IMG/VR virus record: IMGVR_UViG_3300045771_000049
Span: 1-64,000 of that record
DNA length: 64,000 bases
Source of the DNA: a virus
Taxonomy: Duplodnaviria > Caudoviricetes
Reading direction: 5' to 3' (one strand)
Both the position numbers and the translations under genes were made by a program. Below the pieces are notes generated by a model that had not been told where the DNA came from, did no database searches, and worked only from the letters and a program-made list of their open reading frames with translations. This document shows positions 539-53,600 of the stretch, in pieces. The first letter of the stretch is position 1. Each line of letters starts with the position of its first letter.

Positions 539-3500
539 TTACGGTGTGGCGGCCGGTGCTGGCGGTGCGCCTCCAGCCGGTGGGGCACCACCGCCCATAT
601 CAGCCCCAGGGACTGCCTCACTGCCGTCAGCCGGTGGGATATCGCCCTCGGGCATGCCCTCTGGCGGCATATCCATCCCCATATCGCCCCCAGGGTGCAG
701 ACCGACCGCTCCGAGACCGTCCTGCGAGCCGCCCTCAGCCGGGGAGCTACCAGTCTTCGCCTTGATCTTGTCGGCGTTTTCTTCGCTCCACATGGTCTCA
801 TTCTCGATGATCTCGTCATCGTTGAGACCGAGATAACGCTTCAATTTGAAGCGTTCTGACAACTTCTTATTCTCAGCAAGACCTTGATAGACCTGAACGC
901 GCTGGGCATCCAGTTCAATCTGCCGATACCGCGTAAACGACTGTGGTGGATTGAAATGCAGTTCGAACAGCCCGGCCTCGATTTCAATACCATTCTTGAC
1001 CAAATAACGTTTAAAGTCCTTGTCAAATACAGGTGCAAGCAGAGACTGAAGACGCATGCAGTATTTGGAGAAACGATACTCTTGGATCATTGCGGCGCCG
1101 AGTTTACCATCGTTGAAGGCAACGTTACTCGCGGCTTCATCCTCACCGATGTTGAGATAAGAGGTCGGAACACGCAGTCCACGCGCCAGCTTCTTGGAAA
1201 AGAAGGTTAGGTCAAGAATGCTGTCGTTTCCTTGGCCGCCTGGAAGCGTTTCCACTTTCGAGCCGCGTCCATCGGCTGAACTGGCAAAGAAATAATCGTC
1301 GTTGATGCTGTTTTGAATGAAGATGTTTTCCGCAATAGCGAAGTTATGGTGCGCACTGAACACCTCGTCCTTATCCACCGTAATCGTGCCTACCGTCTGA
1401 TTAGACGCGGGCTCGATCGCTTCAAGGCGGGGTTTTCCGTATGTTGGATCAAGTGCAATCAGTTTATGATCCGGGGTTAGGTCCTTCGCCTGAACCAGTT
1501 CACCACCACAGACCGGCAGTTTGTGCTCAGGTGTGCAGATCAACGAACCGCCATGGTCGAATTTTAGCCGGATCACCTCAGTATTCTGTTTAGTGATACC
1601 TGCCCATGAGATCGGCGCGTGTATTTTCTGACCGGTCTTCGGATCGACACTATACACAAAGTTCTTTGTACCAGCCTCGAACTCCTCGATGATTTGGGTG
1701 AGTGTTAGAACCCGTCCATCAGCCATAGGTAGTAGAGTTTCCAACGATACGCACAGAGGGTTGTAGGCAGCATCTAATATTGATCCGCCAGTTCCACTAT
1801 TCTTAGTGAAAATACCACCCTGGATTGCAAATGTATGGTAGGAGTGATAAATCTCATCACCATCAACTGTTATGGTGCCGGTATCCTGTTTTTCATCCAA
1901 TCTTTCGATCGAGACGAGTTTGTGATTAAGATATTGATATTTGGCCTGGAAATCATTAAAGTCTGTGAAACCATTTTGCTTCAGCAGTTCTATTATCGTT
2001 GTTGGACCGATTCGTTTCTTGCAATGGCGCTTGTTGATTTCAAAGAACCTATTCCGGAAACCTGCGTCTTTTTGAACACTCTGATACATCCGATGATACG
2101 GAACACCCGTCGTCCTGCTTTGCGACAGTTCTTGATAATGGCTTTTGAAAATACTAAACATCTCCTGATCGAATTGGTATCTTGATGTGAAACTCCTGTT
2201 TTTTAGTGCGGTCTGTTCCGAAATTTCTCCCGCAAAATAATCAGCCACCATTTTGTGTGTGTATTTCCAGCCTTTTGTCGCCGGATCAAAGATTTGTGTA
2301 TACGAGTTTTTCTTCTGGCTATACCGCTTTTCGCGAAAATAGAGTGGAATAAAACTCTCTCCAATCGTCAGGTCCTCAGCTTTGACGAACCCTTTGCCCA
2401 GAATAGGAAAAGAGTGGTCTGGCGTACACACGATGGTTTCACCATTGTCGAGGGTCAATTTGACCACATCGGTTTGCTTTTTGGTTTCACCGGCCCAAGT
2501 AATCTTACCCGGAACCACAGCACCTGTGGCGGGATCGCATGAGTAAACCCAGTTCTGTTTCCCTGCATTATGTTCTGCGATCACGTCACTGAGAGGAAGC
2601 AATCTACCGTCTAATAAATGTATTTTTGTCCCAAGAAACAAACAGCGATTTGGAATCCGACGTTGGTGAATATCGTTCTTTATGGATTCGATATGACGTT
2701 TGGCGCGTTCTGGTGGCATTGAACCGACATCGATGTAGAAAATCCGTCGTTCTGGCGCCCTCTGTACTCTGTAGATAAGTATAGAATCCTCCAAAAGCTC
2801 TTTCTGCTTAAATGTTTTAAATATAGGCTCAAGTATAGATTGACCAAACGGCCAATTTACATCGTTCCCTATACTTAGGGTAAGATGGATCACATGTTGA
2901 GCTTCGACAATACCGACATCCTGGGCGAACGGTCCCATCATATGTCTTTGGCGCGGATCAGTCGCATTGCCGACGAGCGTAAAAGGTGCGGGCGATGACA
3001 CGGGCGCTGATGCGGTGCGGGTGGTGCCTACGGGTGAGCCGCCGAACGGGGTGCGATATTGTGACGGATCGGCCTGTTTGGAGGCGAACTTGGCTTGGCG
3101 GTTATAGTCGAGGCCACGGACCAGATATTCCTCGGGGATTTTCCCGGCACTTTCATCGACCTTAACCATCTCGACCATGAAGTGATCGAGCCAGAGCCAT
3201 TCTTGGGTTTCCGGATCGCGCAGGAAGAACGCGTCGCCGTTTTTGATGGTATCGCGGAACATGTACCACAGCCGCGCCCGCATGTTGTTCAGCTTGAGCC
3301 ACTTATCCATCATCGTCTTGATGATTTTGACTTCCGATTCGTTCGGATCGGTGGTATACGCTACCTCGAACGGTTCGTCGTTTTGTTCTTCTGACTGGGT
3401 GCAGAAGTCCGCGATCGTGTCCAGTGCAGCATTTATATCGGAATCGCGATCCATATCGTCGAACTGATAGTATCGTTGGATACGATTAGGATGGCCCGCG

Positions 3501-3619
3501 TACACCAGTGGCAAAAAGCTCGATACATTGGCACTGGTCGATGCACTGGGACTGTATTGGTCTTTCGGCATGGTCGGCGAGCCGGTCTTGATAATCTGGA
3601 GGTGTTTTTTCCAAGAAAT
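539..3619 (-). CDS. T4 gp20-like portal protein with two inteins; probable ATT start
   Basis: Motifs QSILEP, LLEDSILIYRVQRAPERRIFYIDVG.MP, DDYFF...GRGSKVETLPGG. Frame extends 16 codons upstream of ATG 3571 to ATT 3619 (xSWKKH) with AAGGA upstream. Confidence 0.93.
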   Translation of the reverse strand: MSWKKHLQIIKTGSPTMPKDQYSPSASTSANVSSFLPLVYAGHPNRIQRYYQFDDMDRDSDINAALDTIADFCTQSEEQNDEPFEVAYTTDPNESEVKIIKTMMDKWLKLNNMRARLWYMFRDTIKNGDAFFLRDPETQEWLWLDHFMVEMVKVDESAGKIPEEYLVRGLDYNRQAKFASKQADPSQYRTPFGGSPVGTTRTASAPVSSPAPFTLVGNATDPRQRHMMGPFAQDVGIVEAQHVIHLTLSIGNDVNWPFGQSILEPIFKTFKQKELLEDSILIYRVQRAPERRIFYIDVGSMPPERAKRHIESIKNDIHQRRIPNRCLFLGTKIHLLDGRLLPLSDVIAEHNAGKQNWVYSCDPATGAVVPGKITWAGETKKQTDVVKLTLDNGETIVCTPDHSFPILGKGFVKAEDLTIGESFIPLYFREKRYSQKKNSYTQIFDPATKGWKYTHKMVADYFAGEISEQTALKNRSFTSRYQFDQEMFSIFKSHYQELSQSRTTGVPYHRMYQSVQKDAGFRNRFFEINKRHCKKRIGPTTIIELLKQNGFTDFNDFQAKYQYLNHKLVSIERLDEKQDTGTITVDGDEIYHSYHTFAIQGGIFTKNSGTGGSILDAAYNPLCVSLETLLPMADGRVLTLTQIIEEFEAGTKNFVYSVDPKTGQKIHAPISWAGITKQNTEVIRLKFDHGGSLICTPEHKLPVCGGELVQAKDLTPDHKLIALDPTYGKPRLEAIEPASNQTVGTITVDKDEVFSAHHNFAIAENIFIQNSINDDYFFASSADGRGSKVETLPGGQGNDSILDLTFFSKKLARGLRVPTSYLNIGEDEAASNVAFNDGKLGAAMIQEYRFSKYCMRLQSLLAPVFDKDFKRYLVKNGIEIEAGLFELHFNPPQSFTRYRQIELDAQRVQVYQGLAENKKLSERFKLKRYLGLNDDEIIENETMWSEENADKIKAKTGSSPAEGGSQDGLGAVGLHPGGDMGMDMPPEGMPEGDIPPADGSEAVPGADMGGGAPPAGGAPPAPAATP
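1310..1753 (-). mobile_element. Intein 2 in portal (148-aa mini-intein)
   Basis: Starts CVSLET, block B TPEH, ends HHNFAIAENIFIQN|S. Confidence 0.9.
1799..2644 (-). mobile_element. Intein 1 in portal (282 aa, probably degenerate endonuclease region)
   Basis: Starts CLFLGT, block B TPDH, ends YHTFAIQGGIFTKN|S; AT-richer than flanks; partial HNH-like YTHKMVA. Confidence 0.9.
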
Positions 3620-7483: not shown

Positions 7484-7825
7484 CTAGTGGTGTGTTTGTT
7501 TTCGTTTTCTCAGCCACTCGGATCGAGACTGACTGAGCGGCTGGGTCGTAGGGGTGACGAGCTTGTTCTGCAAGGCGTAGAACATCGCTGCGGCACGGGC
7601 CGCATCCCGGCGTGACACATCTGCTGGGTCTGGGGGTTCGATGCCGCCGCAACAGGGGCATTCCCCGCGCAAATGGTTTAGCCCGCCGATCACCATGCGC
7701 ATGGCACATTCGATGTGGAGAAAGTTGCGTGTTCCGCCGGGATGTGTCTGAACGCAGGTGTAGGGATCATTTGGACCCACGGGTTCCGCGCAGTGCAAAC
7801 AGTGCAACATTGATCGTCGTCTCAA
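7484..7825 (-). CDS. Hypothetical Cys/His-rich protein
   Basis: CxxC, HxEC, CPCC motifs; overlaps stop of upstream ORF. Confidence 0.55.
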   Translation of the reverse strand: MRRRSMLHCLHCAEPVGPNDPYTCVQTHPGGTRNFLHIECAMRMVIGGLNHLRGECPCCGGIEPPDPADVSRRDAARAAAMFYALQNKLVTPTTQPLSQSRSEWLRKRKQTHH

Positions 7826-8118
7826 TCCTGGCGCGTTTCGGGATCACGATCGCGGATTTTGATCACGCCCTCGATAAAGAACTTCGCCAAGTCATGGACC
7901 TGGGCGTCAGTCGGTTCGAGCGCGGCGGTAACCTGAATGAGGTGATTAAACAAGGCATTGGCGATATCATCTTCGACTCCACCACTCAAACGGGCGCGCG
8001 TGACCATCTGCTCGAACAACGTCCACACCCATGGATAACCCGGCGAGGCCTGAGCGGCCTCGAAATCGGTTAGCCAGCCTTGGGCATAAACTTGCAATGA
8101 CCCTTGTGTCATAGTCAT
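7822..8118 (-). CDS. Hypothetical protein
   Basis: GAGGGAG SD; coupled to next ORF. Confidence 0.65.
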   Translation of the reverse strand: MTMTQGSLQVYAQGWLTDFEAAQASPGYPWVWTLFEQMVTRARLSGGVEDDIANALFNHLIQVTAALEPTDAQVHDLAKFFIEGVIKIRDRDPETRQD

Positions 8119-16947: not shown

Positions 16948-17003
16948 AATGGCGCTAATCCTATCCAGGTAAACATCTGGCTACGAACGAGGATCGTTAT
17001 CAC

Positions 17004-17948
17004 ATGAAATGGTTTCAATGGCGCAAGAAAATCGCGGCACCCCCGGTGATCGCCCTGGCGGCACCCGAACCGCCGACCCATATCGCGATTGACCGGTTTG
17101 TGGTGTTAATTGGGTTTGTGCATCTGCGGGGCACCGTGCAGCATCCTCGCCAATCGATCAGCCGCCTGCACTTGGGTGTGGCAGGCGCTCTGTATGAGGT
17201 GCCGTTAAGCGGTGCTGACTTCAACCTGCGGCTCGATCTCGGGGATGGCTTCGAGATGGTCCAGCCGACCCTGACAGTGACCTATATCGATGGCACGCAG
17301 GTGACGTTTGAAAACCTCGGGCAGAGCGAGTCACATAGCGGGCGCGGCCATCAACTGTTTCCGGTGTTTCTCCAGAAAGTGGCGGCCCATCCAAGCGGGA
17401 ATTTCTTGGAGATCGGCTCGCGCGCGCGGTCGGGCGTCACCCGACGAGAACTTATCCCGGCGGGCTGGAACTACACCGGTTTCGACATTATGCCTGGGGA
17501 GAATGTCGATATCGTCGGCGATGCCCACAGCCTGTCTACGCAGGTGCCGCACAACCATTTCCAAGCGGTGATGGCGGTCGCCGTGTTCGAGCATATCTTA
17601 ATGCCGTGGCAGGTGGCCCTGGAGATGAACAAGGTGATGACGATGGGGGGGATTGCCTTCATCTTCACCCATCAGAGTTTCCCATTGCACGATGAGCCAT
17701 GGGATTATCTGCGGTTTTCCGCAAACGCATGGCCTGGGTTTTTCAATGACAAGACCGGATTTCGCATCCTTGAAGCAGCGGCTGCTGAGCCGGTCTATAT
17801 GGTTGGGCAGCGCTGGAATCCCGGCGTGAACCACCGGCTCCTGCCCGGTATGACCGTGTCCTCCGTGTTGGTGCAAAAGATTGCTGATAGCGATTTGCTA
17901 TGGCCGGTCGATGCGAGCGCGATCGTCAAAACGTCCTACCCAGCCTGA
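17004..17948 (+). CDS. Class I SAM-dependent methyltransferase
   Basis: LEIGS, YTGFDI...VDIVGDAH, VFEHILMPW, HDEPWDYLRF. Confidence 0.8.
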   Translation: MKWFQWRKKIAAPPVIALAAPEPPTHIAIDRFVVLIGFVHLRGTVQHPRQSISRLHLGVAGALYEVPLSGADFNLRLDLGDGFEMVQPTLTVTYIDGTQVTFENLGQSESHSGRGHQLFPVFLQKVAAHPSGNFLEIGSRARSGVTRRELIPAGWNYTGFDIMPGENVDIVGDAHSLSTQVPHNHFQAVMAVAVFEHILMPWQVALEMNKVMTMGGIAFIFTHQSFPLHDEPWDYLRFSANAWPGFFNDKTGFRILEAAAAEPVYMVGQRWNPGVNHRLLPGMTVSSVLVQKIADSDLLWPVDASAIVKTSYPA

Positions 17949-18112
17949 TCAGCGGCCTGGGGACTGTCACCCTCGCTCTGTGGCTGCTTCATGGTCGCAC
18001 CGCCGCATTTTTTGATTGAGTCATGACTTTAACGATCGTCGAGGCATACCGTCAATATCCGGTCGATTGCTGAGACCGGGAAACTTTCGGTCCTTAAACC
18101 GGGGAAAACCGC

Positions 18113-18142
18113 TTGACACACTAGATAGCAGTGGAGTTTAAT
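18113..18142 (+). promoter_or_regulatory. Sigma70-type promoter for leader/tRNA operon
   Basis: TTGACA-18 nt-TTTAAT; predicted start near ATG 18149. Confidence 0.6.
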
Positions 18143-18148
18143 GACCCT

Positions 18149-18241
18149 ATGATCACTTCGCGATTTTTCTGTTGTTGGCGATATCTCAGCGGTGCGTATG
18201 CCGGTGGAGAGATCATGGCCAATGCGGAGGGGGTTATCTAG
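18149..18241 (+). CDS. Putative attenuator leader peptide MITSRFFCCWRYLSGAYAGGEIMANAEGVI
   Basis: Codons TTT TTC TGT TGT TGG CGA TAT match the four downstream tRNAs; followed by terminator. Confidence 0.7.
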   Translation: MITSRFFCCWRYLSGAYAGGEIMANAEGVI

Positions 18242-18269
18242 CTCCTAACGCGAATTTGGTTATGTTTTC

Positions 18270-18302
18270 AACCCACTTGGCAGATCGCCTCGTGGGTTTT
18301 TT
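18270..18302 (+). terminator. Intrinsic terminator (attenuator) upstream of tRNA cluster
   Basis: AACCCAC...GTGGGTT stem followed by TTTTGTT, about 15 nt before tRNA-Trp. Confidence 0.75.
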
Positions 18303-18316
18303 GTTGTCTGGCGTGT

Positions 18317-18392
18317 ATCAGTGTAGCTCAATTGGTAGAGCAGCGGTCTCCAAAACCGAAGGTTGAAGATTCGAGTTCTTCCACTGGTGCCA
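18317..18392 (+). tRNA. tRNA-Trp(CCA)
   Basis: Cloverleaf, loop CT-CCA-AA, TTCGAGT, encoded CCA end. Confidence 0.92.
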
Positions 18393-18411
18393 GTCAGGAT
18401 CGTGCCTAGAT

Positions 18412-18486
18412 GCCGGGGTAGCATAGTTGGTAGTGCATCGGTGTGAAGTACCGACCGCCCACGTTCAAATCGTGGCCCCGGCGCCA
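18412..18486 (+). tRNA. tRNA-Phe(GAA), atypical
   Basis: GCCGGGG/CCCCGGC acceptor, TCGGT-GTGAAGT-ACCGA anticodon arm, TTCAAAT, G-CCA end. Confidence 0.85.
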
Positions 18487-18510
18487 AATTCTACGACGTG
18501 CGTCACGACT

Positions 18511-18596
18511 GCATAGGTGGGTGAGAGGCCGATACCGTCGCACTGTAAATGCGATCTTTCAAAAGCGCGCTGGTTCGAATCCAGCCCTGTGCACCA
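18511..18596 (+). tRNA. tRNA-Tyr(GTA)
   Basis: TCGCA-CTGTAAA-TGCGA, long variable arm, GGTTCGAATCC, ACCA. Confidence 0.93.
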
Positions 18597-18597
18597 G

Positions 18598-18671
18598 GGT
18601 CCGTTGGCAGAGTGGTTATGTGTAGGACTGCAAATCCTACCACGAAGGTTCGATTCCTTCACGGACCTCCA
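18598..18671 (+). tRNA. tRNA-Cys(GCA)
   Basis: TAGGA-CTGCAAA-TCCTA, GGTTCGATTCC, T-CCA end. Confidence 0.93.
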
Positions 18672-18683
18672 ATCATCGCATGG

Positions 18684-19001
18684 CTAGACCATCAACAGCA
18701 CCACCCAAATGATTTTACAGACCACGTGAATGCCTTGGTCAGTCCGCACACTGATCTTGCGTTCACATTTCGCCCAATCGGTGAGCCAATGTGCGATGCA
18801 TTCGGCCGCGCCCAAGATACCCGAGCCGGTGATCCAAGCGACGATCAGACCATGGCTCGAAGCATGCACAGTCATTCCAAACTGCCATGGCAACATGCTG
18901 CGATTGTGATACTTATTTTTGAGACGCGAAAGCTTCAACCCACGTTGGAGTGGATGGTCCGCGATCGCGTGACCGATAAGCAGTAGCAGAAATGTCACCA
19001 T
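18684..19001 (-). CDS. DUF3307-like membrane protein
   Basis: GHAIADHPLQ, HWLTDWAK, DQGIH. Confidence 0.75.
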   Translation of the reverse strand: MVTFLLLLIGHAIADHPLQRGLKLSRLKNKYHNRSMLPWQFGMTVHASSHGLIVAWITGSGILGAAECIAHWLTDWAKCERKISVRTDQGIHVVCKIIWVVLLMV

Positions 19002-19010
19002 TCAGGTGTT

Positions 19011-19200
19011 TGTATAGTAGCCTCAGATGAAACTGATCAATGCTTTTTTCGACGAAGTGGCTCACTTTTTGTAGCCTGCACCACAAGGCTGGTAATCGGG
19101 TCCTCGATGTTGTCGTAGCCTTTGCAGACTGAACTCCATGCCGCCCACTTGCACGCATTCACGTTTTTGTAGCCTTTTTCGGTTTTCGTAGCTTGCGGCT
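19011..19200 (-). repeat. Three clear and two weaker degenerate CRISPR-repeat-like units
   Basis: + strand GTAGC-hairpin units with tails at 19011, 19065, 19109, 19163, 19182; e.g. minus AGTCT-GCAA-AGGCT-ACGACAAC. Confidence 0.65.
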
Positions 19201-19267
19201 TTCGGTTGGGATCGTGATGTGCCCTGATGGCCTCAACAGCGTATAAGAATACCGAGGTACGTTCAAG

Positions 19268-19567
19268 AGGCAGCGGGTTTGGTCAGCGTCTCAGGTGATA
19301 TAACCATAATATCGTTACGCCTGTGACGCCTGAACTTGCTGGCTTGCCGCTCAATCTGTGCCTTTAACAAATGTTCGATGATCGCCCATAACAGAAGATT
19401 TTAACAGGTGAATTATGGTTGACTTTTTCTTCGAAGGAACTGAATATGGCAAGCGTTTGGCTATTCCATGTTCAGCAACTCCACCCCGGCGAGTTCCAGC
19501 ACGCCTATCACAGCGATCCCGCTGCCTACCTAACCCCTCCTCAGACGGTCCCCTTCGGGGGACCGTG
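19268..19567 (+). ncRNA. Candidate structured RNA with pseudoknot, unknown class
   Basis: Helices 19268-77/19518-27, 19286-95/19320-29, 19332-42/19486-96, 19343-48/19448-53; loop 19302-08 pairs with 19414-20; cUUCGg hairpin at about 19545-66. Confidence 0.55.
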
Positions 19568-19654
19568 CAGGACGACCCATAATGATCAAGCTGCGCATTC
19601 TGATTCTCACCAATCTGGCTCGTCACCTTCAGGTCTATTTAGCATGATGGGATT

Positions 19655-19707
19655 AGCGCCATTCATCCGCGAGGCTAAAGACCTCGCGGTTTTCTGGCGC
19701 GTTCTTG
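19655..19707 (-). mobile_element. Orphan IS200/IS605 left-end remnant
   Basis: GCGCCATTCATCCGCGAGGCTAAAGACCTCGCGGTTTTCTGGCGC closely matches the reverse complement of the IS end at about 42362-42407, with compensatory stem changes. Confidence 0.75.
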
Positions 19708-19718
19708 ATAAATAAGCC

Positions 19719-20168
19719 ATGCTGATAGAAAGTCTTTTTCGAGAGGATACGCCGGTTCGCGCACCGGCCGGTTTCGATCTAAAACTGTATCACGGGACGG
19801 ACAAGGTATTCACCGAGTTTCTTCCGTTCAGTCATTTTGGCACCGAAGCGCAGGCTCAGATGCGGAATTCCAAGCAGATCATTCCGGTGTACGTTCGAGG
19901 CACCAAATTTAAGCGGTTGCGCGATATCGGTTCTTGGTCAAAAGCCAAAATGGCGCAGATGCGGGCATTGGCTCGCCAGGGCTATGACGGCGTGATCTAT
20001 TTGAATCGGTATGAAGGCATCCCGTTCGAAACTTTCCAGGCCGCCTATAAACAGGTTCCGCTGGATCGTCTTGATCGCCTGTCGGATAGCCAATTTAAAA
20101 AGCTCATCCCCGTAGCCGAGGATTCCTATATTATTTTCGATCCGCGCAACGTCTGCAGAGCCTCTTAG
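19719..20168 (+). CDS. ART-PolyVal-like protein with leader
   Basis: TAAATA-AGCC-ATG; MLIESLFRE; LYHGT..F..F..FSHFGT, GYDGVIY.N.YE, SYIIFDP. Confidence 0.8.
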   Translation: MLIESLFREDTPVRAPAGFDLKLYHGTDKVFTEFLPFSHFGTEAQAQMRNSKQIIPVYVRGTKFKRLRDIGSWSKAKMAQMRALARQGYDGVIYLNRYEGIPFETFQAAYKQVPLDRLDRLSDSQFKKLIPVAEDSYIIFDPRNVCRAS

Positions 20169-21126: not shown

Positions 21127-21927
21127 ATGCGATATCATGAACTCATAAGGGAAGCGGCTGGTCGGAGCCACATTCGCGCCTATCATGGAACCACGCATGA
21201 TTTTGCGCGGTTTCAGATGAAAGCGGTCGGCAAAGGCGAAGGCTTCCAATCGTTCGGCTACGGTCTGTATTTCGCTGAGAATTACGAGGTCGCCCGGTTC
21301 TATGCCGACAAGATCGGCGCCGCCAAGCCGCCGGACGATCAACATGCCGAGGTGATCTATGAAGTCAACATCGCCGCCAATCTCGATAGTTTTTTGGATT
21401 TGGATGCGAAGCTGACGGATCAATCGCGATATGTGCAGGACGCATTGAGCGAAATCCTCTACATCGACAATGAACCGATGCTGAATGGCAAACGGTTCTA
21501 CGACTGTTTTCCCGAGGTGGCTCCGATCATACGCATCAAAGCCCGACGTGAATGGATGGCAGCACATGGTGATCTCGGGTCGTTTCAGTCGGCGTTGCGA
21601 CAGGTCGTGGCTACGGCCTCAGAGCAAGTCAAGGTATCGGTTGAGACGATTATTGCCGATGTGCGCGCTGCAAACCGGACGACAGCGCAGGTTATCAAGC
21701 CGGGATTGGGATCGCATCTCAGAGACGAGTTGCAGAGTATGACTGGTTCGCCCAAGGCGGTGTCGCAATGGCTGCGGAAACGCGGGATCAATGGGAACAC
21801 ATATTTTGACGAAGGGTCGCGCGGCATTGATCTCGCGCCGGGTCAGCCACCAACGCGTAACTTTGTGGTGTTTGATGCGCGGCAGGTTCGTGTAGTTGGC
21901 AAAACCTATCCCCGAGCAGCTAAATAG
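21127..21927 (+). CDS. ART-PolyVal-like protein with leader
   Basis: MRYHELIRE; AYHGT.HDF..F...GKGEG.QSFGYGLYFAE, GINGNTY, NFVVFD. Confidence 0.82.
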   Translation: MRYHELIREAAGRSHIRAYHGTTHDFARFQMKAVGKGEGFQSFGYGLYFAENYEVARFYADKIGAAKPPDDQHAEVIYEVNIAANLDSFLDLDAKLTDQSRYVQDALSEILYIDNEPMLNGKRFYDCFPEVAPIIRIKARREWMAAHGDLGSFQSALRQVVATASEQVKVSVETIIADVRAANRTTAQVIKPGLGSHLRDELQSMTGSPKAVSQWLRKRGINGNTYFDEGSRGIDLAPGQPPTRNFVVFDARQVRVVGKTYPRAAK

Positions 21928-42813: not shown

Positions 42814-42855
42814 TCTTATTTACACCAGATTGCCATGTGTTGTATAAATAGAAAT

Positions 42856-44106
42856 ATGAAAGCGTTCAAGTATAGACTGAAGCCGACTAGCGAGCAAGAG
42901 GGCGCATTGCGTCAAACTGGCGGTGCTTGTCGTTGGCTTTGGAATAAGATGCTCGAACAGAACAAAGCCAAATACGAACAAGAAAAGAAATTTGTCTTCA
43001 AGTATGATTTGGTCGGGTCTCTACCAAAACTGAAAGAGCTACATCCGTGGCTGAAGGAAATGCCTAGTCAATCGTTGCAGCAGAGATGTTGGGATTTGGA
43101 TACCGCTATGAAGCGGTGCTTCAAGTCGGGATTTGGATTCCCGAAGTTCAAATCGAAAGATGATGAAAACGACACGTTCCGTATCTCCCAGACCAATGGG
43201 CATATTAAAGTCACACGGCAGGCGATCAAGCTACCAAAATTAGGATGGATCAACTGGCGGCGTCATCGACCCATCGATGGCAGATTGATGTCTGTCACCA
43301 TCAAGCAGGAGGGCATTCGCTGGTATGCTATTTGTTTGTGCGATACAGGCGAGGTGCTGAACCAGATCAGCGTTTGTGAAGATGACATCGTTGGTATTGA
43401 TCTTGGATTATCCTGCTTTGCCATGACCAGCGATGGCGAACTATTTGAGAAGCCAGCCCAATGCTACCAACGACTCAAACATGAGCAACGGAAGTTGAGT
43501 CGGATTGACGAGTCGAACAAGAAACAAGGCATTACCAAGTCCAACAGAAGGCTCAAACAGAAACAAATATTAGCCAAAACGCATCGTATTATTAGCGATC
43601 AGCGATATGATTTTCATCACAAGACGAGTAGAGAGATAGCCAATTTCTATAAGTTTGCTGGCATGGAAGACCTACATATCAAAGGAATGATGAAGAACCA
43701 CTGCTTAGCAGGTTCAATAGCTAAGGCAGGCTGGCACTCATTCCGAATGATGATACGATACAAACTCAAAGACCAAGGCGGCGATCTGTTACTGGCGGAT
43801 CGGTTCTATCCAAGTACCAAGCTGTGTTCGAGTTGCGGTCATAAGCAGGCGATGACGCTTGCCGATCGCACGTTCACATGCGAATCCTGTGGGATGGAGA
43901 TGAACCGAGATGCCAATGCGGCGATCAATTTGAAGCTGTGGGCGATGAGAGAGATGAATAGGGCTGGGACAGTCCGAATCTACGCACGGGGAGATACCGC
44001 CATCGGGGACGAAATACGTAAGTCGTCTAGATGTGTATCATTGAAGCGTGAAAAGTTCCGAGACAATCAGGTCTTGGAAGCCGCGACCTCTTTAGGGTCG
44101 CGGTAG
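42856..44106 (+). CDS. tnpB: RNA-guided endonuclease TnpB
   Basis: MKAFKYRLKPT, GIDLG, EDL, CSSC/CESC, RD.NAAINL; TATAAATA 5 nt before ATG. Confidence 0.95.
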   Translation: MKAFKYRLKPTSEQEGALRQTGGACRWLWNKMLEQNKAKYEQEKKFVFKYDLVGSLPKLKELHPWLKEMPSQSLQQRCWDLDTAMKRCFKSGFGFPKFKSKDDENDTFRISQTNGHIKVTRQAIKLPKLGWINWRRHRPIDGRLMSVTIKQEGIRWYAICLCDTGEVLNQISVCEDDIVGIDLGLSCFAMTSDGELFEKPAQCYQRLKHEQRKLSRIDESNKKQGITKSNRRLKQKQILAKTHRIISDQRYDFHHKTSREIANFYKFAGMEDLHIKGMMKNHCLAGSIAKAGWHSFRMMIRYKLKDQGGDLLLADRFYPSTKLCSSCGHKQAMTLADRTFTCESCGMEMNRDANAAINLKLWAMREMNRAGTVRIYARGDTAIGDEIRKSSRCVSLKREKFRDNQVLEAATSLGSR

Positions 44107-44667
44107 TTCACATGAATATCGTTCCGATATGTTTCCGCTATCCAGTTTATCCTGGTCATAGTTCGCGAATTCAGATCGAATTTGACTTGGATTGAATACT
44201 ACGTATTGCGTAATGGGCGTTTTTCCATCCGGACTATCGGTTAACGTGTCCGGCAGGACGATCCCATCATAGCCATTGGCTTGGAGAAATTGACGGGCAG
44301 CAGGGTAATCGGTCGTGTCACCATTCATCCGGATTTGCCGTCCGCCGACCACGTAGTCGGGTTTTCTGAATGTGGTGAAACGATCGACCAGATCACGGAT
44401 TTCATTGTAGCTCTTGATCACCCAGGGATGCTTCAAGCGCAACCGCACCGGCATGACCGACGCGCCCTGTCCCCGTGCGGCAAAATCGGCAAACCCTGAA
44501 GCCGCCTCGGGATTATCCGTAAACCAGATGCCCAATGGACCTTCGCGCGATCCACTGCCCAGCTTACTGCCCATTTCAAAGGTGTGAAAATCTTTGTTAG
44601 TGCCGTGAAATGCTTTGATATTGAACCCAAGCTGTTCGGGACGGCCGATTAATTCCATGAGCCGCAT
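44092..44667 (-). CDS. ART-PolyVal-like protein; last codons supplied by the IS
   Basis: MRLMELI; AFHGT..F..F...GIWFTDNP..A, VMPVRL, GYDGIV, YVVFNPSQIRS. Confidence 0.82.
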   Translation of the reverse strand: MRLMELIGRPEQLGFNIKAFHGTNKDFHTFEMGSKLGSGSREGPLGIWFTDNPEAASGFADFAARGQGASVMPVRLRLKHPWVIKSYNEIRDLVDRFTTFRKPDYVVGGRQIRMNGDTTDYPAARQFLQANGYDGIVLPDTLTDSPDGKTPITQYVVFNPSQIRSEFANYDQDKLDSGNISERYSCELPRP

Positions 44668-47600
44668 CAGTATTTGCCTGTGCGCGTGGGAGTCGTGGCC
44701 GCCACTCTTGGCTGGTCTTGTGCCGCGCTCATATCCACAGAAACGTTTGGCGTGGTTTCGTCGGTCGCCTGCTTCACATCATTGACCTTAACGTTGATAT
44801 CGCGCTTCGGCACATCGTGCTGGGTTTGTGTCCCGGTCCCGTTTTTCCATTTGACCGCGAACCGGTAGAACGCGCTGGTCGGATGAGGCCGGTGCGGTCG
44901 GCGGGCCGGAGCCGAGGTGCCGCCACCAAACCCATCGGTCCGCAGATTGAGACCGGGTACGCCTGTGCCGATCTGCACGATCCCAGGCGGATGAACCACC
45001 GCGCCCCCAGTGGCAATCGGATCGCCAGAGACATCCTGGATCGTGCCGCCATTCAGATTAAGCGCAATGATCCGCAGATCGTCCGTGTTCTGATTATCGC
45101 CGATAGTATAGGAAAATACTATCGCATTGCCCGGTGCCGGATCGCCCATGTAGGTTGCGATGCCGCCATCATTCAGGCTCAAGGTTGGCGAACCCGTTAC
45201 CGTTACCTGTTCGCTCAGGTAAAGGGTCATCAAGGCAGTCGAACCCAGCGTCAGCGAACCCGAGCCATTGGTCACATCAGCGCCGGTAATCGCCACCGAG
45301 ATGATGATCGCTTGGTTGCAGCCGACGGTATCCTGTGCATTGCCGGTTTCCGACGTGTTGCTGGAGTCAATCCCCATGATAACGGCCATATCAACGGCCG
45401 AACAGGTTTCCGCAACGCCAGCGATATAAATCGCTGTTGCATTGGTCTGATCAAGCGCGAGACCGGTGTCTGTGCTATTCGCCACCGCCCATTCGGCGAT
45501 CTCACAGGCATCGGCAAGCTCGCAAAGCTCGGTCACATCATCAATCGAGGTGTCAAGCGCACTGGTGGCATCGGCAGACAGTCCGCCTTCGATAATAGCC
45601 GCAAGAGTGATCAGAGTGGCATCCGTGCGGTCCGCCATGCCCCCCGTTTCGACCACCGCCTGCGTGCTGATCAGAACACTATCGGTCAGGTCCGCCGCAA
45701 CCCCGAACTCGATGATCGACGCCAAAGTCATGTAAGTGGCATCAACCACTTCGATCGTCAAATTGGATTCCATCACCGGCACGAGTGTCACGATGGCATC
45801 GATACACATTTCGCGCGCGACCGCATTGACCTCTTCAATATCCGCATAGGTGTTCCAGATGCAATCGACTTGGTCGGTCGCACCCCCCAGTTCAGCAATG
45901 GTCGCCGCGAACCACACAAACACGGCGATCTGATCCGTTATCGTTTCGGCTTCATCCACCCCAATCCCGGAGAAGTTGCCGCCATTGCCACTATCACTGG
46001 CGCCTTCGAGTTCATCGACCTCGCCGACGAAAACATCATCCCTCGTATCCATCGAGTCTACACAGTTGCCAAACTCTGCGATCGTTGTAATGAAGGTCGC
46101 CGTGCTGTCGGCGATATCGCTGCATGAGCCGAGATCACCAGCGCTGCCGCCAAACTGACTGAAGGCGGTGTCAGGCAGGTCGGCACAGGACAAGAAGTCT
46201 CTGGTATCGCCATTGAAATTGCTGCTCAGCGTATCGAAACTGTCGAGCGCTGCGCATAGTTCTGCCACCGTACTGGCGAAGATCGCGACGACGCTGGCCT
46301 GATCGAGGGTCGCTTCGGTTTCCTCTGTATCTCCATCGAACAGGCTGGCAAACGTATTGACACTATCTTCTGGCCCGCAATTTTCAGGCGTCTCACCAAC
46401 GAACAGATTGGCCCGATTGTCGGTCAGATCGAGCGCGATCGGTATCTCGTCGATTTGGGCGACGAAGATCGCGGTTATGCCGCTCGTATCCCCAATGATG
46501 CCGATCTCGTCGGTTTCCCCGCTATAGGTGCTGGCGATGATAGCCGACAGGTCAACCAGAGCGCCGGTTTCATCGGTCTCGCCGCCCAGCAGGTTCGCGT
46601 AGGTATCGGTCAGATCAGACGCCGCGCCAATTTCAGCGATCACGGTAGCAAACACGGCCACCACGTTCGTCAGATCGGTGCTAGCGCCGGTTTCATCGGT
46701 CTCGCCGACCCATATACTATCGGCGGTGTCTACGGTCTCAGTGAGGCCCAGCGGCTCGCTTACGTCACCTGGGGCGATGTTCGCGGCGAACGGAGCATCA
46801 AGCAGGTTACAAAGCTCCACAACCGCACCCCAGTAGGCGCTTGGCCCGACATCAACGAGGTCCTCGGCGTCAGGAAATTCGGCGATGATCCCCTCGGTGA
46901 TGTCTACGTCTACCGGCTGGTCAAGTAGATCAGCGCTCTCATCGACCTCACCGACGAACACGCTGAGGGCTTCGTTCGTGAGGTCCAGCGCCGTTCCGGT
47001 GTCCGTCGTGTTGCCTAGGTAGACACTTTCGTAAGTGTCGAGGTGATCCCTGGCGAAACAGAAATTGAACGCGCTGGCGACAAAATCGGCCTGCGTGTAG
47101 CAGGTCTCATCCGCTTGGCCGGTTTCGTCGGTTTCACCCACGTAAACACTGGCGATGACATCAGCCCAATCACTCGCACCAGCGGTCTCGGATGCATCAC
47201 CGCCATATTGCGCCTCGAAGGTATCGAAACTATCGATCGCAGTTCCGGTTTCGAGGCAGTCAACAATATAATCAACGGTGGTATCACACTCATCGGCTGA
47301 AGACGCAGTTCCTTCGTTAATATTCGCGTTGCCAATATGACCCGCGTTAACGATTTCGGCCGCGTGCAGGGTGTCGCTGGTCGCTCCGACGAACAGATTG
47401 TCGGCGGTATCGGCCAGATCGAGCGGGGAGGCGAATTCCGCATTGGACCCGATGAACACGGCAGTGGCGCTGAGAGCATCCGTGCAGCCCTCGGCTTCGC
47501 TAATTGCCCCGCCAAACATGCTGTCATATTCTTCGGCATCATCCAGCAAGCCGTAGATTTCGCTGGCGTTACCGTTGAACAGATTGAACCCGTTATCGGA

Positions 47601-50600
47601 GGCATCCGTCAGGCCGCCATATTGGTCAAGCTCATCGATCTCGGCGGCAAATACCGCACTGACATTGGTCGCGTCTTGCAGCGTCGTGAGCAGATCATCC
47701 GTATCACCACCCAGCAGACAGCCATAGAGATCGGCGGCCTCGGCGAGACTGCCCGTTTCGCTCGTGTCGCCGCCAAAAATGCTATCGCTGGTGTCTACAA
47801 GCTCACTGAGCGCACCGGTTTCCTCGGTTGTGCAGGCGAACCATGCAGTGGCATCCACAATTTCTGCGGCCCAGCCGGTTTCGTCATAGGTCCCCACGAA
47901 GCTGCTTGGACCAGGGGCGCATGCATCACCCAACCCGTCCGCATCGGCGATATCACCGCCAAAGATGTTGGCGAAATTATCAGCATCGTCCTGACAGTTT
48001 CCAGCATCCTCGATATCACTGATGAAGATTGCCGTCGCGTCTGTGACGTCATTGGCGGCCAATGTTTCGGCCATATCGCCTACGTAGTCACTGTCCGCAA
48101 CATCACTGCTATCGCTGATAGCAAGGCTTAAATCGATCGCGCTATTGGCGATGTTCTCGCCCGCGCAGCCATCAATGCCAATACCGAATTCTGCAACAGC
48201 ACCGACGAATATACTGTCCAGCGTGTCGGTCAAATCGGCGCCATCCAGGAATTCAAACTCCAGGCCATACGTGCTATTGACATCGACTACAAAATCATCA
48301 ATGAACTGCGCATCTTCTTCGATATCACCGACGAAAATGTTATCAGAGACGTCAACCACATCTGCCAGATCGCTGAATTCACTCGTGTGACCGGTATAGA
48401 TACTGCCGAAATCATCTACGCTGTCGGTGAGTACGCCATCATCTTCGATATCCGTAACGAAAATTGCGGTCGCGTCGGCCGGATCATCAGCAAAGCCAAA
48501 TTCATCCACTTCACTGACAAAATCAGCATTGGCGCCGCTCTCATCCGAAATCGTATCAGCATCCGTCGAATCGCCGACGAACACGTTGGCATAAACATCC
48601 ACCCAATCTTCGCCAGCCAGGGTCTCCTCAGTCTGGGCAACGAAGATGGTAGTGCAGGTGATAACATCACTGGCCGTCAGTTGCTCTTGAACCGCGCCGA
48701 TGAAAATGCTTGCAAACGTATCAGTGAGTTCATCCAGTTCGCCCAGTTCACTGGCATCCCCATCGAACGTATCATCGATCGTGTCCATGGCGTCGCGACC
48801 ATCACCCGCCTCATCCACTTCGGCCGCGAAGATTGCCGAGCAAGCGGACTGGTCACCTGCATCCAGCGTTTCGTCGGTCTCGCCCACGAAAATGCTGCCG
48901 AAAGTATCGGCCGCATCGAGCGACGCACAGCTATCGAGAGTTGCGCCATTGTAAAGGCAGAACTGGGTATTAGTCTGATCAGCGGCGGCGCTTGTCTCAT
49001 CACAGAACGAAACAAAATCAGTGGTCTCGGTCAGACCATCACTGGGTGTCAGTCTCTCATCGGTTTCGCCGACGAAAATGCTGGCAGTGAGATCGGCATA
49101 GTCGGCCGCATCCAGCCCATCGCTATTATCGCCTCCAAAGACGTTAGTGGTATTGTCGGTAAGATCGGCACCGAAAGCGTCCTCCACCGCGTCTACGACG
49201 AAAATCGCAGTGCTGCTCGGGACATCCAGCACGGCGAGTGCATCGCTGGTGGCCCCATTGAGGATGCTGCCGAGACAATCCGGCAGATCGATAAGTTGGC
49301 CATCCTCCTGCACATCACCCAGGAACACACTGGCATAGGTGTCGGTGAAGTCATGAACATGGGCGAAATTGACCCCTGTCGCGACAAACAGCGCGGAGCA
49401 ATTGGCCTGTTCTGCCGCATCCAGGGTTTCATCGGTCTCACCGTCAAACACGCTGGGGCCGGTGTCAACACTGTCTGCGAGATCGGCGGCTTCATCGCAC
49501 TCGGCCACGCCGATGATATTGGCCGCAAGCGCATCGATCGCGGCACCAAGCTCATCGGTTTCGCCGACGAAGAGACTGGGCGCGGTGGCGACCGGCTGGT
49601 CATTGGCGCCCAAGGCTTCGTTGATGTTGACTAGGGTCTGGTCGGTTTCCGAGGCGAAGTCACCAATGCTGCCAGTTTCGGTGTATTGGCCAACCAGGGT
49701 GCTAGGCCCGAGGTCCGAAGCGTCGCCCGTCGATCCAGTTTCAGTGACAGCACCGTCGAAGCTATTTGAGTCATTATCGGTTTGATCGGCGGCATTCGCT
49801 GTCTCGACGCTGAGACTGACGAAGACCGCAGTGCTATCACAAACGTCGAGCAAGGCGCCGGGTTCGATGCAATCACCACCAAATGCGCCACCGAAGATAT
49901 CCGGCTGGTCTGCGACCCAACCCGCTTCATCGGTGTTGCCACCATAGATATCCATGTGACTATCAGCAATATCGGTGGCGAAACGCACGTTATGGATGGT
50001 GGTGTTGAAGATCGCGGTGCGATCAAGCGCATCCGTGATATGGGTTTTTTCGGTGTAATCGCCCAGGAAAATACTGCCCGAGCCATCAGTTGTATCGGTC
50101 GCGTTTGCCAGTTCATCGGCCTCGCCAATGTAGATGCTGGCAAAGTTATCGGCGTAATCGGCGAGAGTGCCGAGTTCGTTAACCGAGGCAATGAAGATGG
50201 CGGTTGCATCGCAGGCGTCCAGAACCAGAAGGTCATCGGCCAGCGCACCGACAAACAGGCTGTTCAGATCGTTTGGTGAATCAGCGGCATTGGCGATTTC
50301 GCTGCCATCGCCGACCCATTGACTGATTGTCGTGTCAGACGCGTCTGTGATCGAAACGATCTCGGCGATCAGCGCCGCGAACACGGCTGTGGTGTCTGTG
50401 CGATCGGTCGTTGTGGCAAGCACTTCGCCTTCGATGCCGGTGAGGATATCGTAAAGGGAATCGCTTTGGTCACCGGTCGCGCCCGCCTCAACCGTGGCCC
50501 CGCCAAAGACGTTGCCCTCGGTATCACTCAGGTCATCGAGTGCTCCGTTTTCGAGGCAGGTGCTGAGGAAACTGGCCGTAATCGTTTCAGCATCAGAGGC

Positions 50601-53600
50601 CGATCCCGTTTCGGTTTCCGCCCCCACGAGCGTATCGTCCAGTGAGGTGACGAAATCGACCGGGACACCTGTGTCTGTGGTGGCGCCGCCGAAGAGGTTC
50701 CCTGAATTATCGCAGGTATCACCGGACGCTCCGAAGTCACTGATGGAAACACTGAAGTCTGCATGATTCGCGACTGTGTCGAGAGCCGCCGCAGAGGCGT
50801 CATCAATGGCGCCATTAAACAGGTTGTTGGCGGTGTTGCTGGCATCCTGGGTCTGGCCTTGCTCATCGGTTTCGCCGACGAACACACTGAGATTGGTGGC
50901 TGTGATCTCGACGACCGCCCCAGTCTCATCGGTTTCACCAACAAAGCTATTGGCGTTTGTATACACAACTTCGGCGATTGCGCCGGTCTCATCGGTTTCA
51001 CCAACAAAGCTATTGGCGTTTGTATACACAACTTCGCCGATCGCGCCGGTCTCAGCGATAGCGCCGACGAATATGCTGGCATGGGTGTCTGTGGTATCGG
51101 CAAGGTCGTTCAGATCATTAATGAAATTTTCATTTTGATCGCCTGCTTCGATCCCTAGATCGGTTAATGCGCCGCTTTCCGCAACTGTGCCAACGAAACC
51201 ACTCTGTGCGGTAGTTGTCGCCTCGGTTGCGTTGCCAAACTCAAGACTTGTAACGACGAAACTGGCCACCGAGGTGGCGAGATCACTGGCTGCGCCATTC
51301 TCAGCAACAGCGGACCCGGTGATCGTGTTGCCGAGTGTGGTGTCAGCCGCAGCCAATAGCTCATTGGCGCTGCCACCAAACAGACTGGAGGCGGTGCCCG
51401 AGGTATCAGTCGCGAGGCCAGAATCGGCAATTGTAGCTACCGCAACGATCGTCGTGGAAATATATTCGAGGGCCGCACCAATTTCGTCAGTTTCTCCGAC
51501 AAAGAGGTTCAGATTCGTGTTCGAATAGTCACTCGCCGCGCCGGTCTCGCTTGCGGCACCGCCAAAGAGGCTGGGGGCGACAGTCGAGCCATCGTCCGCA
51601 GTGCCAGAATCGGCAATCGCGCCCCCATAGCTGCTCGGTGCCTCATTCGTCGCATCATTCGCCCCGCCCGCTTCGTTGACCAGGACCAAGGTGATATCGG
51701 TTTCGGCTTCGCTATCGGCGAGGGCCAAGGGTTCCCATACGGCGCCGACGAACAGATTGCCTGCTGTGGCCATTGTGTCGGTCGCTGAGAGGCTTTCCGG
51801 GGTTTGGCCGACGTAGAGGCTGGCTGCCACGTCCATGGCGTCAGTGGCCGTCCCAGCCTCGGCATAAGCACCGACGAAGATGCTGGCGAACAGACTGGGA
51901 CTATCAGCCGCATTCAGCGGCTCGGCGTCGCTCCCGACAAAGCTGCTAATCGTGGTAGCCAGCAATTCGGCCGCCGCGCCCGATTCGATTGTAGTCCCAA
52001 CATAGACACTGGGCGCTTCATTGACTGAATCGCTGACCAGATCGATCTCGTTGACCGTGGTATTGGCAATGAAGATAGCGATTTCGCTATCAGCCACATT
52101 GCCGGTTTCGGCCAGGGCGCCGCCAAAGGAACTATTGGTCGTGGCCGGGCTATCGAGAGCGGTGCCCGATTCGGCAACAGTGGTCGCGAAAATCGCCTGG
52201 ACTGCGGTGGCATCCGTGCCAAGCAGAGTTTCACCGTCCACAACTGTGGTAATGACATAGCCAGATTCCAGATCGCTTGCGGCCCCGGTTTCGGCATTGG
52301 CGCCCCCGAAACTGCTCGGCCCGGCATTGCTCAGATCGACGGCATTGGGGGTCTCTGCGATATTGGCAAAGGTCTGATAAGTCGCTGAGGGGACATCAAG
52401 TGCTGCGCCAATTTCGTTCGTCGCACCCACGAATACGTTTTGATTCAGGCTGACGCTTTCGACGAGATTACCAGTCTCGACTACTGCTCCCACAAATACA
52501 CTGGCAAACGTACTGGCTGCGTCATTTGCCGTCCCAGTATCGGCAATTGCCCCGTTGAAAAGACTTGGTGCTGTGGTCGCGGAGTCGGTCGCTGAACCGG
52601 TTTCGTTGGTGCTGCCGATCGCGGTATTCAGGGCACTCGGGTTATCGCTCGTCGCCCCGGATTCGGCGATCGCGCCAATGAAGACATTCTGATTGGTGGA
52701 AGGGATATCAGAGGCGCCGCCCATTTCGATGACTGTGGCAACCGCCAGTTCGGTTTCGGTCACGAGGTCCGATGCTAAGCCGGTCTCGCCGACGCTTACA
52801 TTCGTAATATAAACCGAGCTAGTAAGATCAGCCAGTGCGCCGGTTTCAGTCAAAGCTCCGACGAACGTATTGGCACTTGTGTTTACAGTATCGCTGGCCG
52901 ATCCGGTTTCCGGTGTGCTACGGTTCGCCGTGGTGAAGGCGATCAGACTATCGACCGCGTTGCCGTTTTCGGCGATCGCGCCTAGGAATATACTGGCATT
53001 TGTGGCTGGGATGTCGGTTGCCGAACCAGTCTCGCTGATTGCGCTGAGGGTAATATAGGTGGCAGAAGATTGATCAAATGCATTGCCGTTTTCGGGCGTA
53101 TTGCCGACCCATATATCTTGGGTGACACTGACCGTATCAGAGGCGATGCCTGTTTCGGCGACATTCCCTGAGTACAGACTGGCAAAGGCATTGGTCGCAT
53201 CATTGCTTGAGCCGGTTTCGGTGATGGCGCCAACGAAAATACTGCCGAGTGTGTCAGGATTGTCAAGCGCCGCGCCCAGTTCATCGGTTTCGCCCACAAA
53301 CGTGCTGATCGTCGTGGCCGGACTATCGCTCGCGTTGCCTGCTTCATTGATGATCGCGGCTGCGAGATAGATCGATCCCACGGCGTCAGAAGCGGCCCCG
53401 ATCTCGCTGTCGTCGCCACCATAGCTGCTGCCAAACGGAACCGTAGTATCAGCCGCATTGCCAAATTCAGTGATAAGCCCAAAGGTAATATCGGTCTCAT
53501 CGGTTGCATCAGTTAGCGCGCCAGTTTCGCCCGTGTTGCCCACATAGGTGCTGGCGATGATGGCTGTCGCCTCCGCAAGCGTGCCGGTTTCGGCCACCGC

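Follow-up and report, generated by a model that had tools for sequence, protein, structure and literature searches.

Control by a leader peptide is classic for amino-acid operons. In the enterobacterial leaders trpL, pheL, hisL, leuL, thrL and ilvL, a short open reading frame (ORF) close to the promoter carries a run of regulatory codons, and mutually exclusive RNA helices (1:2, 2:3 and 3:4) precede the regulated genes together with an intrinsic terminator. Two of these leaders, thrL and ilvL, read several amino acids at once. The locus described here has the same layout in a virus: it occupies positions 18113-18671 of a window that comprises the first 64 kb of the record IMGVR_UViG_3300045771_000049 (152,147 bp, 54.7% G+C). 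There, a candidate leader ORF, multivalent as thrL and ilvL are, lies ahead of four transfer RNA (tRNA) genes, for Trp, Phe, Tyr and Cys, an arrangement called unit 1 in what follows. Enterobacterial leaders control biosynthetic enzymes (see PMC3082878 for the pheL leader), whereas unit 1 would control the very tRNAs that read its test codons. Since the regulated genes are the tRNAs, the feedback loop would close on tRNA supply, not on amino-acid supply. Unit 1 is further set apart by being phage-borne, by its predicted leaderless mRNA and by a large hairpin, carrying the stop codon, that sits inside the 2:3 loop.

Decoding components are known targets of such leaders. The pheM leader of pheST is, like unit 1, an attenuator for a decoding component of the amino acid that it reads, and in bacilli, hisS paralogues are preceded by leaders with His codons (PMC2965389); both control aminoacyl-tRNA synthetases and deal with one amino acid, whereas unit 1 precedes tRNA genes and holds codons for four. 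In mycobacteria, leaderless polycysteine short ORFs are Cys-responsive attenuators (bioRxiv 10.1101/834739). They share with unit 1 a leaderless short ORF as first cistron, whose Cys codons sense decoding, but they regulate chromosomal cysteine-metabolism operons and not phage tRNAs; the two are likened by description, with no sequence similarity expected. T-box riboswitches, too, let the state of one particular tRNA decide whether a terminator is read through, but they bind uncharged tRNA directly via a specifier codon, with no ribosome involved, and unit 1 has no T-box match. For tRNA genes, control by a leader peptide is apparently new, as a full-text literature search returned no report of it. 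The presence of tRNA genes in phages is usually explained by codon usage, or by the replacement of tRNAs degraded or cleaved during infection; to our knowledge, how these genes are regulated is largely unknown.

With a probability of roughly 0.7, we take unit 1 to be a leader-peptide (ribosome-mediated) transcription attenuator controlling its four-tRNA operon. The sequence features and the folds were established in silico, and the transcription start, translation, stalling, termination and read-through are read from them.

Anatomy of unit 1

A preliminary description of the window had named a TTGACA/TTTAAT promoter, an ORF of 30 amino acids, a terminator and four tRNA genes, and had counted six of seven consecutive leader codons as read by exactly those four tRNAs. 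Sequence reading, ARAGORN and Rfam located every one of these parts at the positions that it had given (Table 1). The count stands as well: in the run FFCCWRY, six codons are strictly cognate to the downstream anticodons CCA (Trp), GAA (Phe), GTA (Tyr) and GCA (Cys).

Six bases separate the putative -10 element from the leader ATG, and no conserved Shine-Dalgarno sequence was seen 5' of this codon. The message, if the promoter is real, should therefore be leaderless, with transcription predicted to start at the A of the ATG, and we infer that the leader ORF is translated. The -10 position is kept, as CTAAAT, in a homologous unit of the related viral contig G001, to which we return below. At the other end of the leader, the terminator hairpin (18270-18298) is made of a 7-bp lower stem, a 2x2 internal loop, a 3-bp top and a 5-nt loop. 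The gap between the terminator and the first tRNA gene is only 14 nt, so that no further promoter can fit before tRNA-Trp.

No known RNA family covers the leader. When positions 17000-20000 were submitted to cmscan at E <= 1, only the four tRNAs and two chance matches came back, and the Rfam models Trp_leader, His_leader, Leu_leader, Thr_leader and Phe_leader had no match. This bears on the idea of a T-box-like riboswitch, in which the leader codons would pair directly with tRNA anticodons and translation would play no part. That the regulated genes are tRNAs and that the leader is highly structured would suit such a device; yet neither a T-box nor any other family was matched in that scan, and every unit of this kind has its cognate codons side by side and in frame, bounded by an ATG and a stop codon, which fits a ribosome and not a single specifier loop. 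A riboswitch of this type is hardly credible here.

A further trait of the locus is internal likeness. The stretch 18164-18181, within the codon run, and the terminator tail 18297-18314 are about 80% alike, each leading from a T-run through a GT-rich stretch to TGGCG. Terminator tails of the same style are found in units 3 and 4 of the record, described below. This likeness between run and tail could be the trace of a duplication, or else a signal for pausing. The T-rich run at 18164 might itself have been the tail of a hidden terminator, but no stable hairpin precedes it, and the idea was dropped; dropped as well was the idea that the conserved TGGCAG loop contains a sigma-54 promoter, the -12 element being a misfit when judged by eye.

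Codon runs and tRNA sets in the record and its relatives

Across the 152-kb record, ARAGORN found 12 tRNAs in four clusters, and every cluster has upstream of it a short ORF matched to its own tRNAs. Units 2 to 4 all lie outside the window. TTGAC stands 31-32 nt before the ATG in three of the four units, and a hairpin with a T-run comes right before the first tRNA in three of the four. The leader of unit 2 contains six Val and two internal Met codons, mostly within its last 13 codons, and that of unit 3 seven Thr codons, two Asp codons and one Glu codon. Unit 4, a Leu unit, has no clear promoter; the top of its terminator is all but the same as in unit 1. When the four leaders are set against the four tRNA sets in a 4x4 table, the diagonal dominates, with cognate codons amounting to 7/29, 8/31, 10/17 and 2/9 in units 1 to 4. 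Unit 3 also holds, at about 128390-128480, between tRNA-Glu(CTC) and tRNA-Thr, a tRNA-like gene with a good acceptor stem, a T-arm, a CCA end and a TCG anticodon loop, which neither ARAGORN nor Rfam called.

How exceptional are these leaders within the record? It contains 1518 ATG-started ORFs of 8-45 codons, and the unit 1 leader is the only one with at least six W/F/Y/C codons among seven consecutive ones. When each leader is judged by its own score in a seven-codon window, leaders 1 and 3 are alone among the 1518 in reaching theirs, and leader 2 is one of two. In six units (three of the record and those of the related contigs G001, G002 and G005), the distance from TTGAC to the leader ATG is 31-32 nt, and this ATG itself comes 6-7 nt after the -10 element. 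Pairs of TTGAC and ATG at this spacing number 31 in the whole record, for about 28 expected. General use of leaderless starts by the phage would show as an excess of this geometry, and none is seen in the record; it is thus a trait of the tRNA leaders in particular. Chance is an unlikely source of the arrangement of unit 1, because the same layout recurs at the other clusters of the record, because relatives display consistent changes, and because of the folding described in the next section.

The relatives G001, G002 and G005 were reached through the portal protein. G001 has a homologue of unit 1, with a mean column identity of 73% to the present record (G000 where the two must be told apart). 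Its TTGAC-to-ATG distance is 31 nt, its first three codons are the same, and its frame stays open for 33 codons; the two leader ORFs differ by two indels, whose lengths (12 and 3 nt) are divisible by three. Here too a hairpin carries the stop codon at its apex, and the T-run of the terminator is kept, while both arms of the terminator have changed together, from a 7-bp stem in G000 to a 9-bp stem in G001. The tRNA set has changed as well: G001 has tRNA-Trp, tRNA-Phe and a degenerate Tyr-like gene (called by neither ARAGORN nor Rfam). A Cys tRNA is absent, and Cys codons are absent from the leader, where PPLR takes the place of FFCC. Three blocks are invariant in the alignment of the two units, TGGCGAT, GCCGG and TGGCAG, and they coincide with the RNA segments 1, 2 and 3 that form the helices of the leader.

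This pattern bears on the possibility that the ORF encodes a functional micro-protein, translated with no regulatory role. The frame, the first three residues and, in part, the C-terminal region of the peptide are conserved between the two leaders, as such a role would have it; yet FFCC gives way to PPLR in G001, the conserved nucleotide blocks are RNA helices, and the one genome carries four unrelated peptides, each matching its own tRNA set. A micro-protein is very improbable.

The two other relatives have Asp/Glu units. The G002 leader has Asp and Glu codons, two of each; Thr is missing both from its codons and from the tRNAs of the unit. In G005 (31% G+C), the leader has three Glu codons and one Asp codon, again with neither a Thr tRNA nor a Thr run; some tRNAs of this contig stand directly behind a promoter, with no leader. 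The preliminary description had suggested that leader codons should covary with the tRNA set. The pattern met here agrees with this: the four clusters of the record are each matched, G001 is without Cys, G002 without Thr and G005 without the Thr run. The gain or loss of a tRNA (Cys; Thr) thus went along with the gain or loss of the corresponding codons, which is consistent with the model, two events being too few for statistics. An ORF of about 100 codons lies in G002 at 62884-62600 (-), between the unit-3-type terminator and the tRNA-Asp and tRNA-Glu genes; from this position, it would be co-regulated with the tRNAs.

Ribosome position and the fold of the leader

The leader RNA of unit 1 has a minimum free energy (MFE) of -59.1 kcal/mol, to be compared with -44.6 +/- 3.7 kcal/mol for its shuffled versions (z = -3.9). 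Left unmasked, it folds as helix 1:2, the central hairpin and the terminator. Segments 1 and 3 are alike, and each of them pairs with segment 2. When the bases covered by a ribosome were masked during folding, a 13-bp antiterminator took the place of the terminator only with the A-site at codons 8-12, and the probability of the terminator went down from 0.92 to 0.15-0.3 solely at these positions. In G001, it went down from 0.98 to 0-0.1, solely with the A-site at codons 9-14. Five footprint sizes gave the same outcome, and among shuffled leaders switch-like behaviour was seen in 2 of 60. At the core of the antiterminator, two invariant blocks of the alignment, GCCGG and TGGCA, pair with each other. 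G001 displays the same topology with stronger helices, 1:2 extending over 22 bp that include the Trp10 and Phe12 codons and 2:3 over more than 18 bp; its central hairpin has the same position and a different sequence. As modelled, folding supports a trp-type switch made of helices 1:2, 2:3 and 3:4. Four traits of the class of attenuators are found together in unit 1: an ORF that follows a putative promoter, clustered cognate codons, a terminator before the tRNAs, and a predicted antiterminator that depends on the position of the ribosome.

The preliminary description had read the locus as a stalling attenuator sensing its own tRNAs. The core of this proposal is upheld by the match of leader and tRNAs, by the relatives and by folding with and without a ribosome footprint, where, for each of the two homologues, the terminator melts solely if the stall falls within the regulatory run. 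Two of its details fare differently. A stall at FFCCWRY was expected to free the antiterminator; the models show this from Cys8 to Tyr12, and hardly at the two Phe codons. Moreover, the antiterminator itself had been drawn as GAGGGGGTT paired with AACCCACTT, which is not supported, the G-rich segment being locked in the central hairpin that carries the stop codon. Such a pairing (18227-18235 with 18270-18278) can be drawn, with one mismatch and one G-U; as a working helix it was rejected, its cost being about 18 kcal/mol above that of the best antiterminated (2:3) fold.

The mechanism that we propose would operate as follows. Transcription would start at or beside the ATG at 18149, and the leaderless RNA would load a ribosome immediately. 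Should charged tRNA be scarce, slow decoding of Cys, Trp or Tyr codons (less clearly of Phe codons) would stall this ribosome in 18164-18184, where it would cover segment 1. Segment 2 (18191-18207), left free, would pair with segment 3 (18273-18289) as the latter emerges; the stem of the terminator would be blocked, and RNA polymerase would read into tRNA-Trp, -Phe, -Tyr and -Cys. With fast decoding, the ribosome would reach the stop codon, itself inside the loop that the antiterminator must close. Behind it, helix 1:2 would re-form, the terminator (18270-18302) would then form, and transcription would end 14 nt before tRNA-Trp. The net effect would be a negative feedback, each tRNA set being made in proportion to how poorly its own codons are read.

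Table 1. Positions of the parts of unit 1 (numbered within the window) and of the other leader-tRNA units, in the record and in related contigs.
Feature	Sequence	Positions	Strand	Remarks
-35 element, TTGACA	window	18113-18118	+	read from sequence; putative function
-10 element, TTTAAT	window	18137-18142	+	non-consensus (T at position 2); 18-nt spacer from -35
Leader ORF, predicted leaderless	window	18149-18241	+	30 codons; ATG 18149, TAG 18239-18241; start, frame and stop kept in G001
Regulatory codon run, FFCCWRY	window	18164-18184	+	codons 6-12: TTT TTC TGT TGT TGG CGA TAT
Helix 1:2	window	18184-18208	+	18184-18193 with 18200-18208; MFE fold; keeps segment 2 paired in the absence of a stalled ribosome
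Antiterminator 2:3	window	18191-18289	+	13 bp: 18191-18194/18286-18289, 18199-18203/18278-18282, 18204-18207/18273-18276
Central hairpin	window	18209-18269	+	enclosed by the antiterminator; stop codon 18239-18241 at apex
Intrinsic terminator 3:4	window	18270-18302	+	stem 18270-18276/18292-18298, top 18279-18281/18287-18289, T-run to 18302
tRNA-Trp (CCA)	window	18317-18392	+	CCA end encoded; ARAGORN; Rfam 62.9 bits
tRNA-Phe (GAA)	window	18412-18486	+	CCA end encoded; ARAGORN; Rfam 57.2 bits
tRNA-Tyr (GTA)	window	18511-18596	+	CCA end encoded; ARAGORN; Rfam 55.4 bits
tRNA-Cys (GCA)	window	18598-18671	+	CCA end encoded; ARAGORN; Rfam 62.3 bits
Unit 2	record	87689-88102	+	TTGACG 87689; ATG 87726, 32 codons; then tRNA-Val, Met-type tRNA
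Unit 3	record	127922-128566	+	TTGACG 127922; ATG 127959, 18 codons; terminator 128077-128101; tRNA-Asp, -Glu, -Glu, -Thr
Unit 4	record	88948-88655	-	ATG 88948, 10 codons, two TTA; terminator 88886-88854; tRNA-Leu(CAA), tRNA-Leu(TAA)
Unit of type 3	G002	63078-62442	-	TTGACA; ATG 31 nt on, 18 codons; terminator; inserted ORF; tRNA-Asp, -Glu
Unit of Asp/Glu type	G005	7644-7974		TTGACA-17-TATAAA; ATG seven bases on, 19 codons; then tRNA-Glu, -Asp

Competing explanations and the phage context

A number of results, of sequence, of folding and of distribution, weigh against seeing unit 1 as an attenuator. When no start codon is required, 1% of random 300-nt windows reach its score of 6/7, which leaves unit 1, taken alone, with p of about 0.01; and the chance of Phe, Cys and Trp codons is raised because its T/G-rich run resembles the T-run tails of the phage's terminators. 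Promoter and terminator both went uncalled in a simple consensus scan; the -10 element has T in place of the usual A at position 2, and the stem has an internal loop. Despite this miss, the two elements are kept in G001. At the level of wobble, the anticodons UAC and UGU would be better matched by codons other than the GTC of unit 2 and the ACC of unit 3. Finally, the G001 leader by itself, with 5/32 codons, is not significantly enriched. Several of these traits fit another scenario, in which promoter and structured leader are real, termination is constitutive and leaky, and the ORF is untranslated, its codon match being a by-product of the T/G-rich tract: the likeness of the run to the terminator tails, the 1% of windows (in the loosest of the tests), the weak -10 element and the absence of a Shine-Dalgarno sequence would all be expected. 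By contrast, this scenario does not account for three further units that match other codon sets, the non-T-rich Val/Met and Asp/Glu/Thr sets plus the TTA codons of Leu, nor for the value of about 3e-4 given by Fisher's combination of the four loose p-values (our own calculation, based on the random-window test). The ATG placed 6-7 nt after the -10 element in six units, a geometry in no general excess, and ORF indels that are multiples of three speak against it too, and we consider it improbable.

Folding provides the second group of adverse results. In the ribosome-free RNA of G000, the fold with the terminator and that with the antiterminator differ little in energy (-59.1 vs -57.9 kcal/mol), and with a ribosome at Trp10 the two remain nearly isoenergetic (-46.8 vs -47.0 kcal/mol), hence the switch in this record must depend largely on kinetics. 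A stall at either Phe codon does little in the models, the terminator keeping a probability of 0.68-0.76. No clean equilibrium switch was found by folding in the Asp/Glu units, nor in unit 2, the Val/Met unit, which has no T-run terminator. It might be, then, that the ORF is translated and matched in its codons, while the readout is of another kind: Rho access or polarity could be involved, the tRNA precursor could be controlled in its 5' processing or its stability, or the response could have the opposite sign. Unit 2 as just described, the hairpin of G005, which no T-run follows, the Asp/Glu units lacking an equilibrium switch and the mere 1-2 kcal/mol between the two folds of G000 would agree with this. 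On the other side, a strong hairpin with a T-run stands directly before the tRNAs or operon in units 1, 3 and 4, in G001 and in G002; in both homologues of unit 1 the terminator is predicted to be lost for ribosomes placed on the regulatory codons; and segments 1 and 3, alike and both pairing with segment 2, are the hallmark of trp-type attenuators. A different readout is thus unlikely, and attenuation by the leader peptide remains the reading that we prefer.

Distribution is the third matter. G001 holds the single homologue of unit 1 that was found: three pattern scans of viral contigs returned it alone, together with one chance match inside a coding region. A strict pattern for unit 1 had zero matches in metagenomes, its relaxed version met 93 bacterial loci, none with a -35 element, and a scan of genome contigs gave 45 chance matches with no tRNA downstream. 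A search with the terminator pattern of unit 3 found G002 alone. The cultured Agrobacterium phage Atu_ph07 and Sinorhizobium phage Phosso have no convincing leader. In the distant giant relatives G006, G008, G009 and G010, the 118 clusters with at most four amino acids show no general enrichment, with isolated hints. Two stretches of G008 provide such hints: upstream of 159462 (-), five consecutive Gln codons come before tRNA-Gln, and upstream of 101135 (-), a 10-codon ORF with two Val-Val pairs comes before a Val/Ala/Val cluster. Gene order around the units is not kept between relatives, and for the methyltransferase adjoining unit 1 no close relative was found.

The phage is T4-like and probably giant. 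Atu_ph07 and Phosso are the nearest cultured phages according to matches of the portal protein, at about 48% identity. The record is probably a fragment of a giant phage genome, because its major capsid protein groups it with uncultured phages of 450-540 kb, which have 45-67 tRNAs each. The window also encodes tail fibres, a DNA methyltransferase and a TnpB-like gene. The T4-type portal protein (539-3571, minus strand; 1010 amino acids) is interrupted at about residues 328-572 by an intein splicing domain. The gene of the TnpB / IS605 OrfB type (42835-44106, plus strand) displays helix-turn-helix, OrfB and Cas12f-like TNB domains, and an ORF of 3937 amino acids (44667-56480, minus strand), with an Ice-binding-like domain at residues 608-807, probably codes for a giant structural or adhesin-like protein. 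Just 3' of the tRNA cluster of unit 1, two ORFs (19719-20168 and 21127-21927, plus strand) have weak, sub-threshold matches to ART-PolyVal ADP-ribosyltransferase domains. In relatives, tRNAs of the suppressor type are met, with anticodon CTA in G002 (59080-59153), G009 (321051-321206) and G010 (in a cluster at 129179-129593), and with anticodon TCA in G006 (190515-190591) and G007 (195523-195598). They hint at read-through or recoding of stop codons in this group of phages; none was found in the present record.

On balance, we lean towards the view that some giant phages put each of their tRNA clusters under its own leaderless leader-peptide attenuator, the ability to decode setting the transcription of the cognate tRNAs. 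If this is true, these phages would possess a modular feedback system for tRNA supply: the phage would gauge decoding speed for each codon set and top up only those tRNAs that run short. The system could act as an automatic counter to the loss of host tRNAs, be it by host shut-off or by anticodon nucleases; a link to tRNA-cleaving host defence, as the preliminary description had it, is speculation. A textbook mechanism would then extend from amino-acid supply to tRNA supply. There would be a simple sequence signature with which to find regulated tRNA operons, and the leaders would make compact, portable sensors for the decoding of chosen codons.

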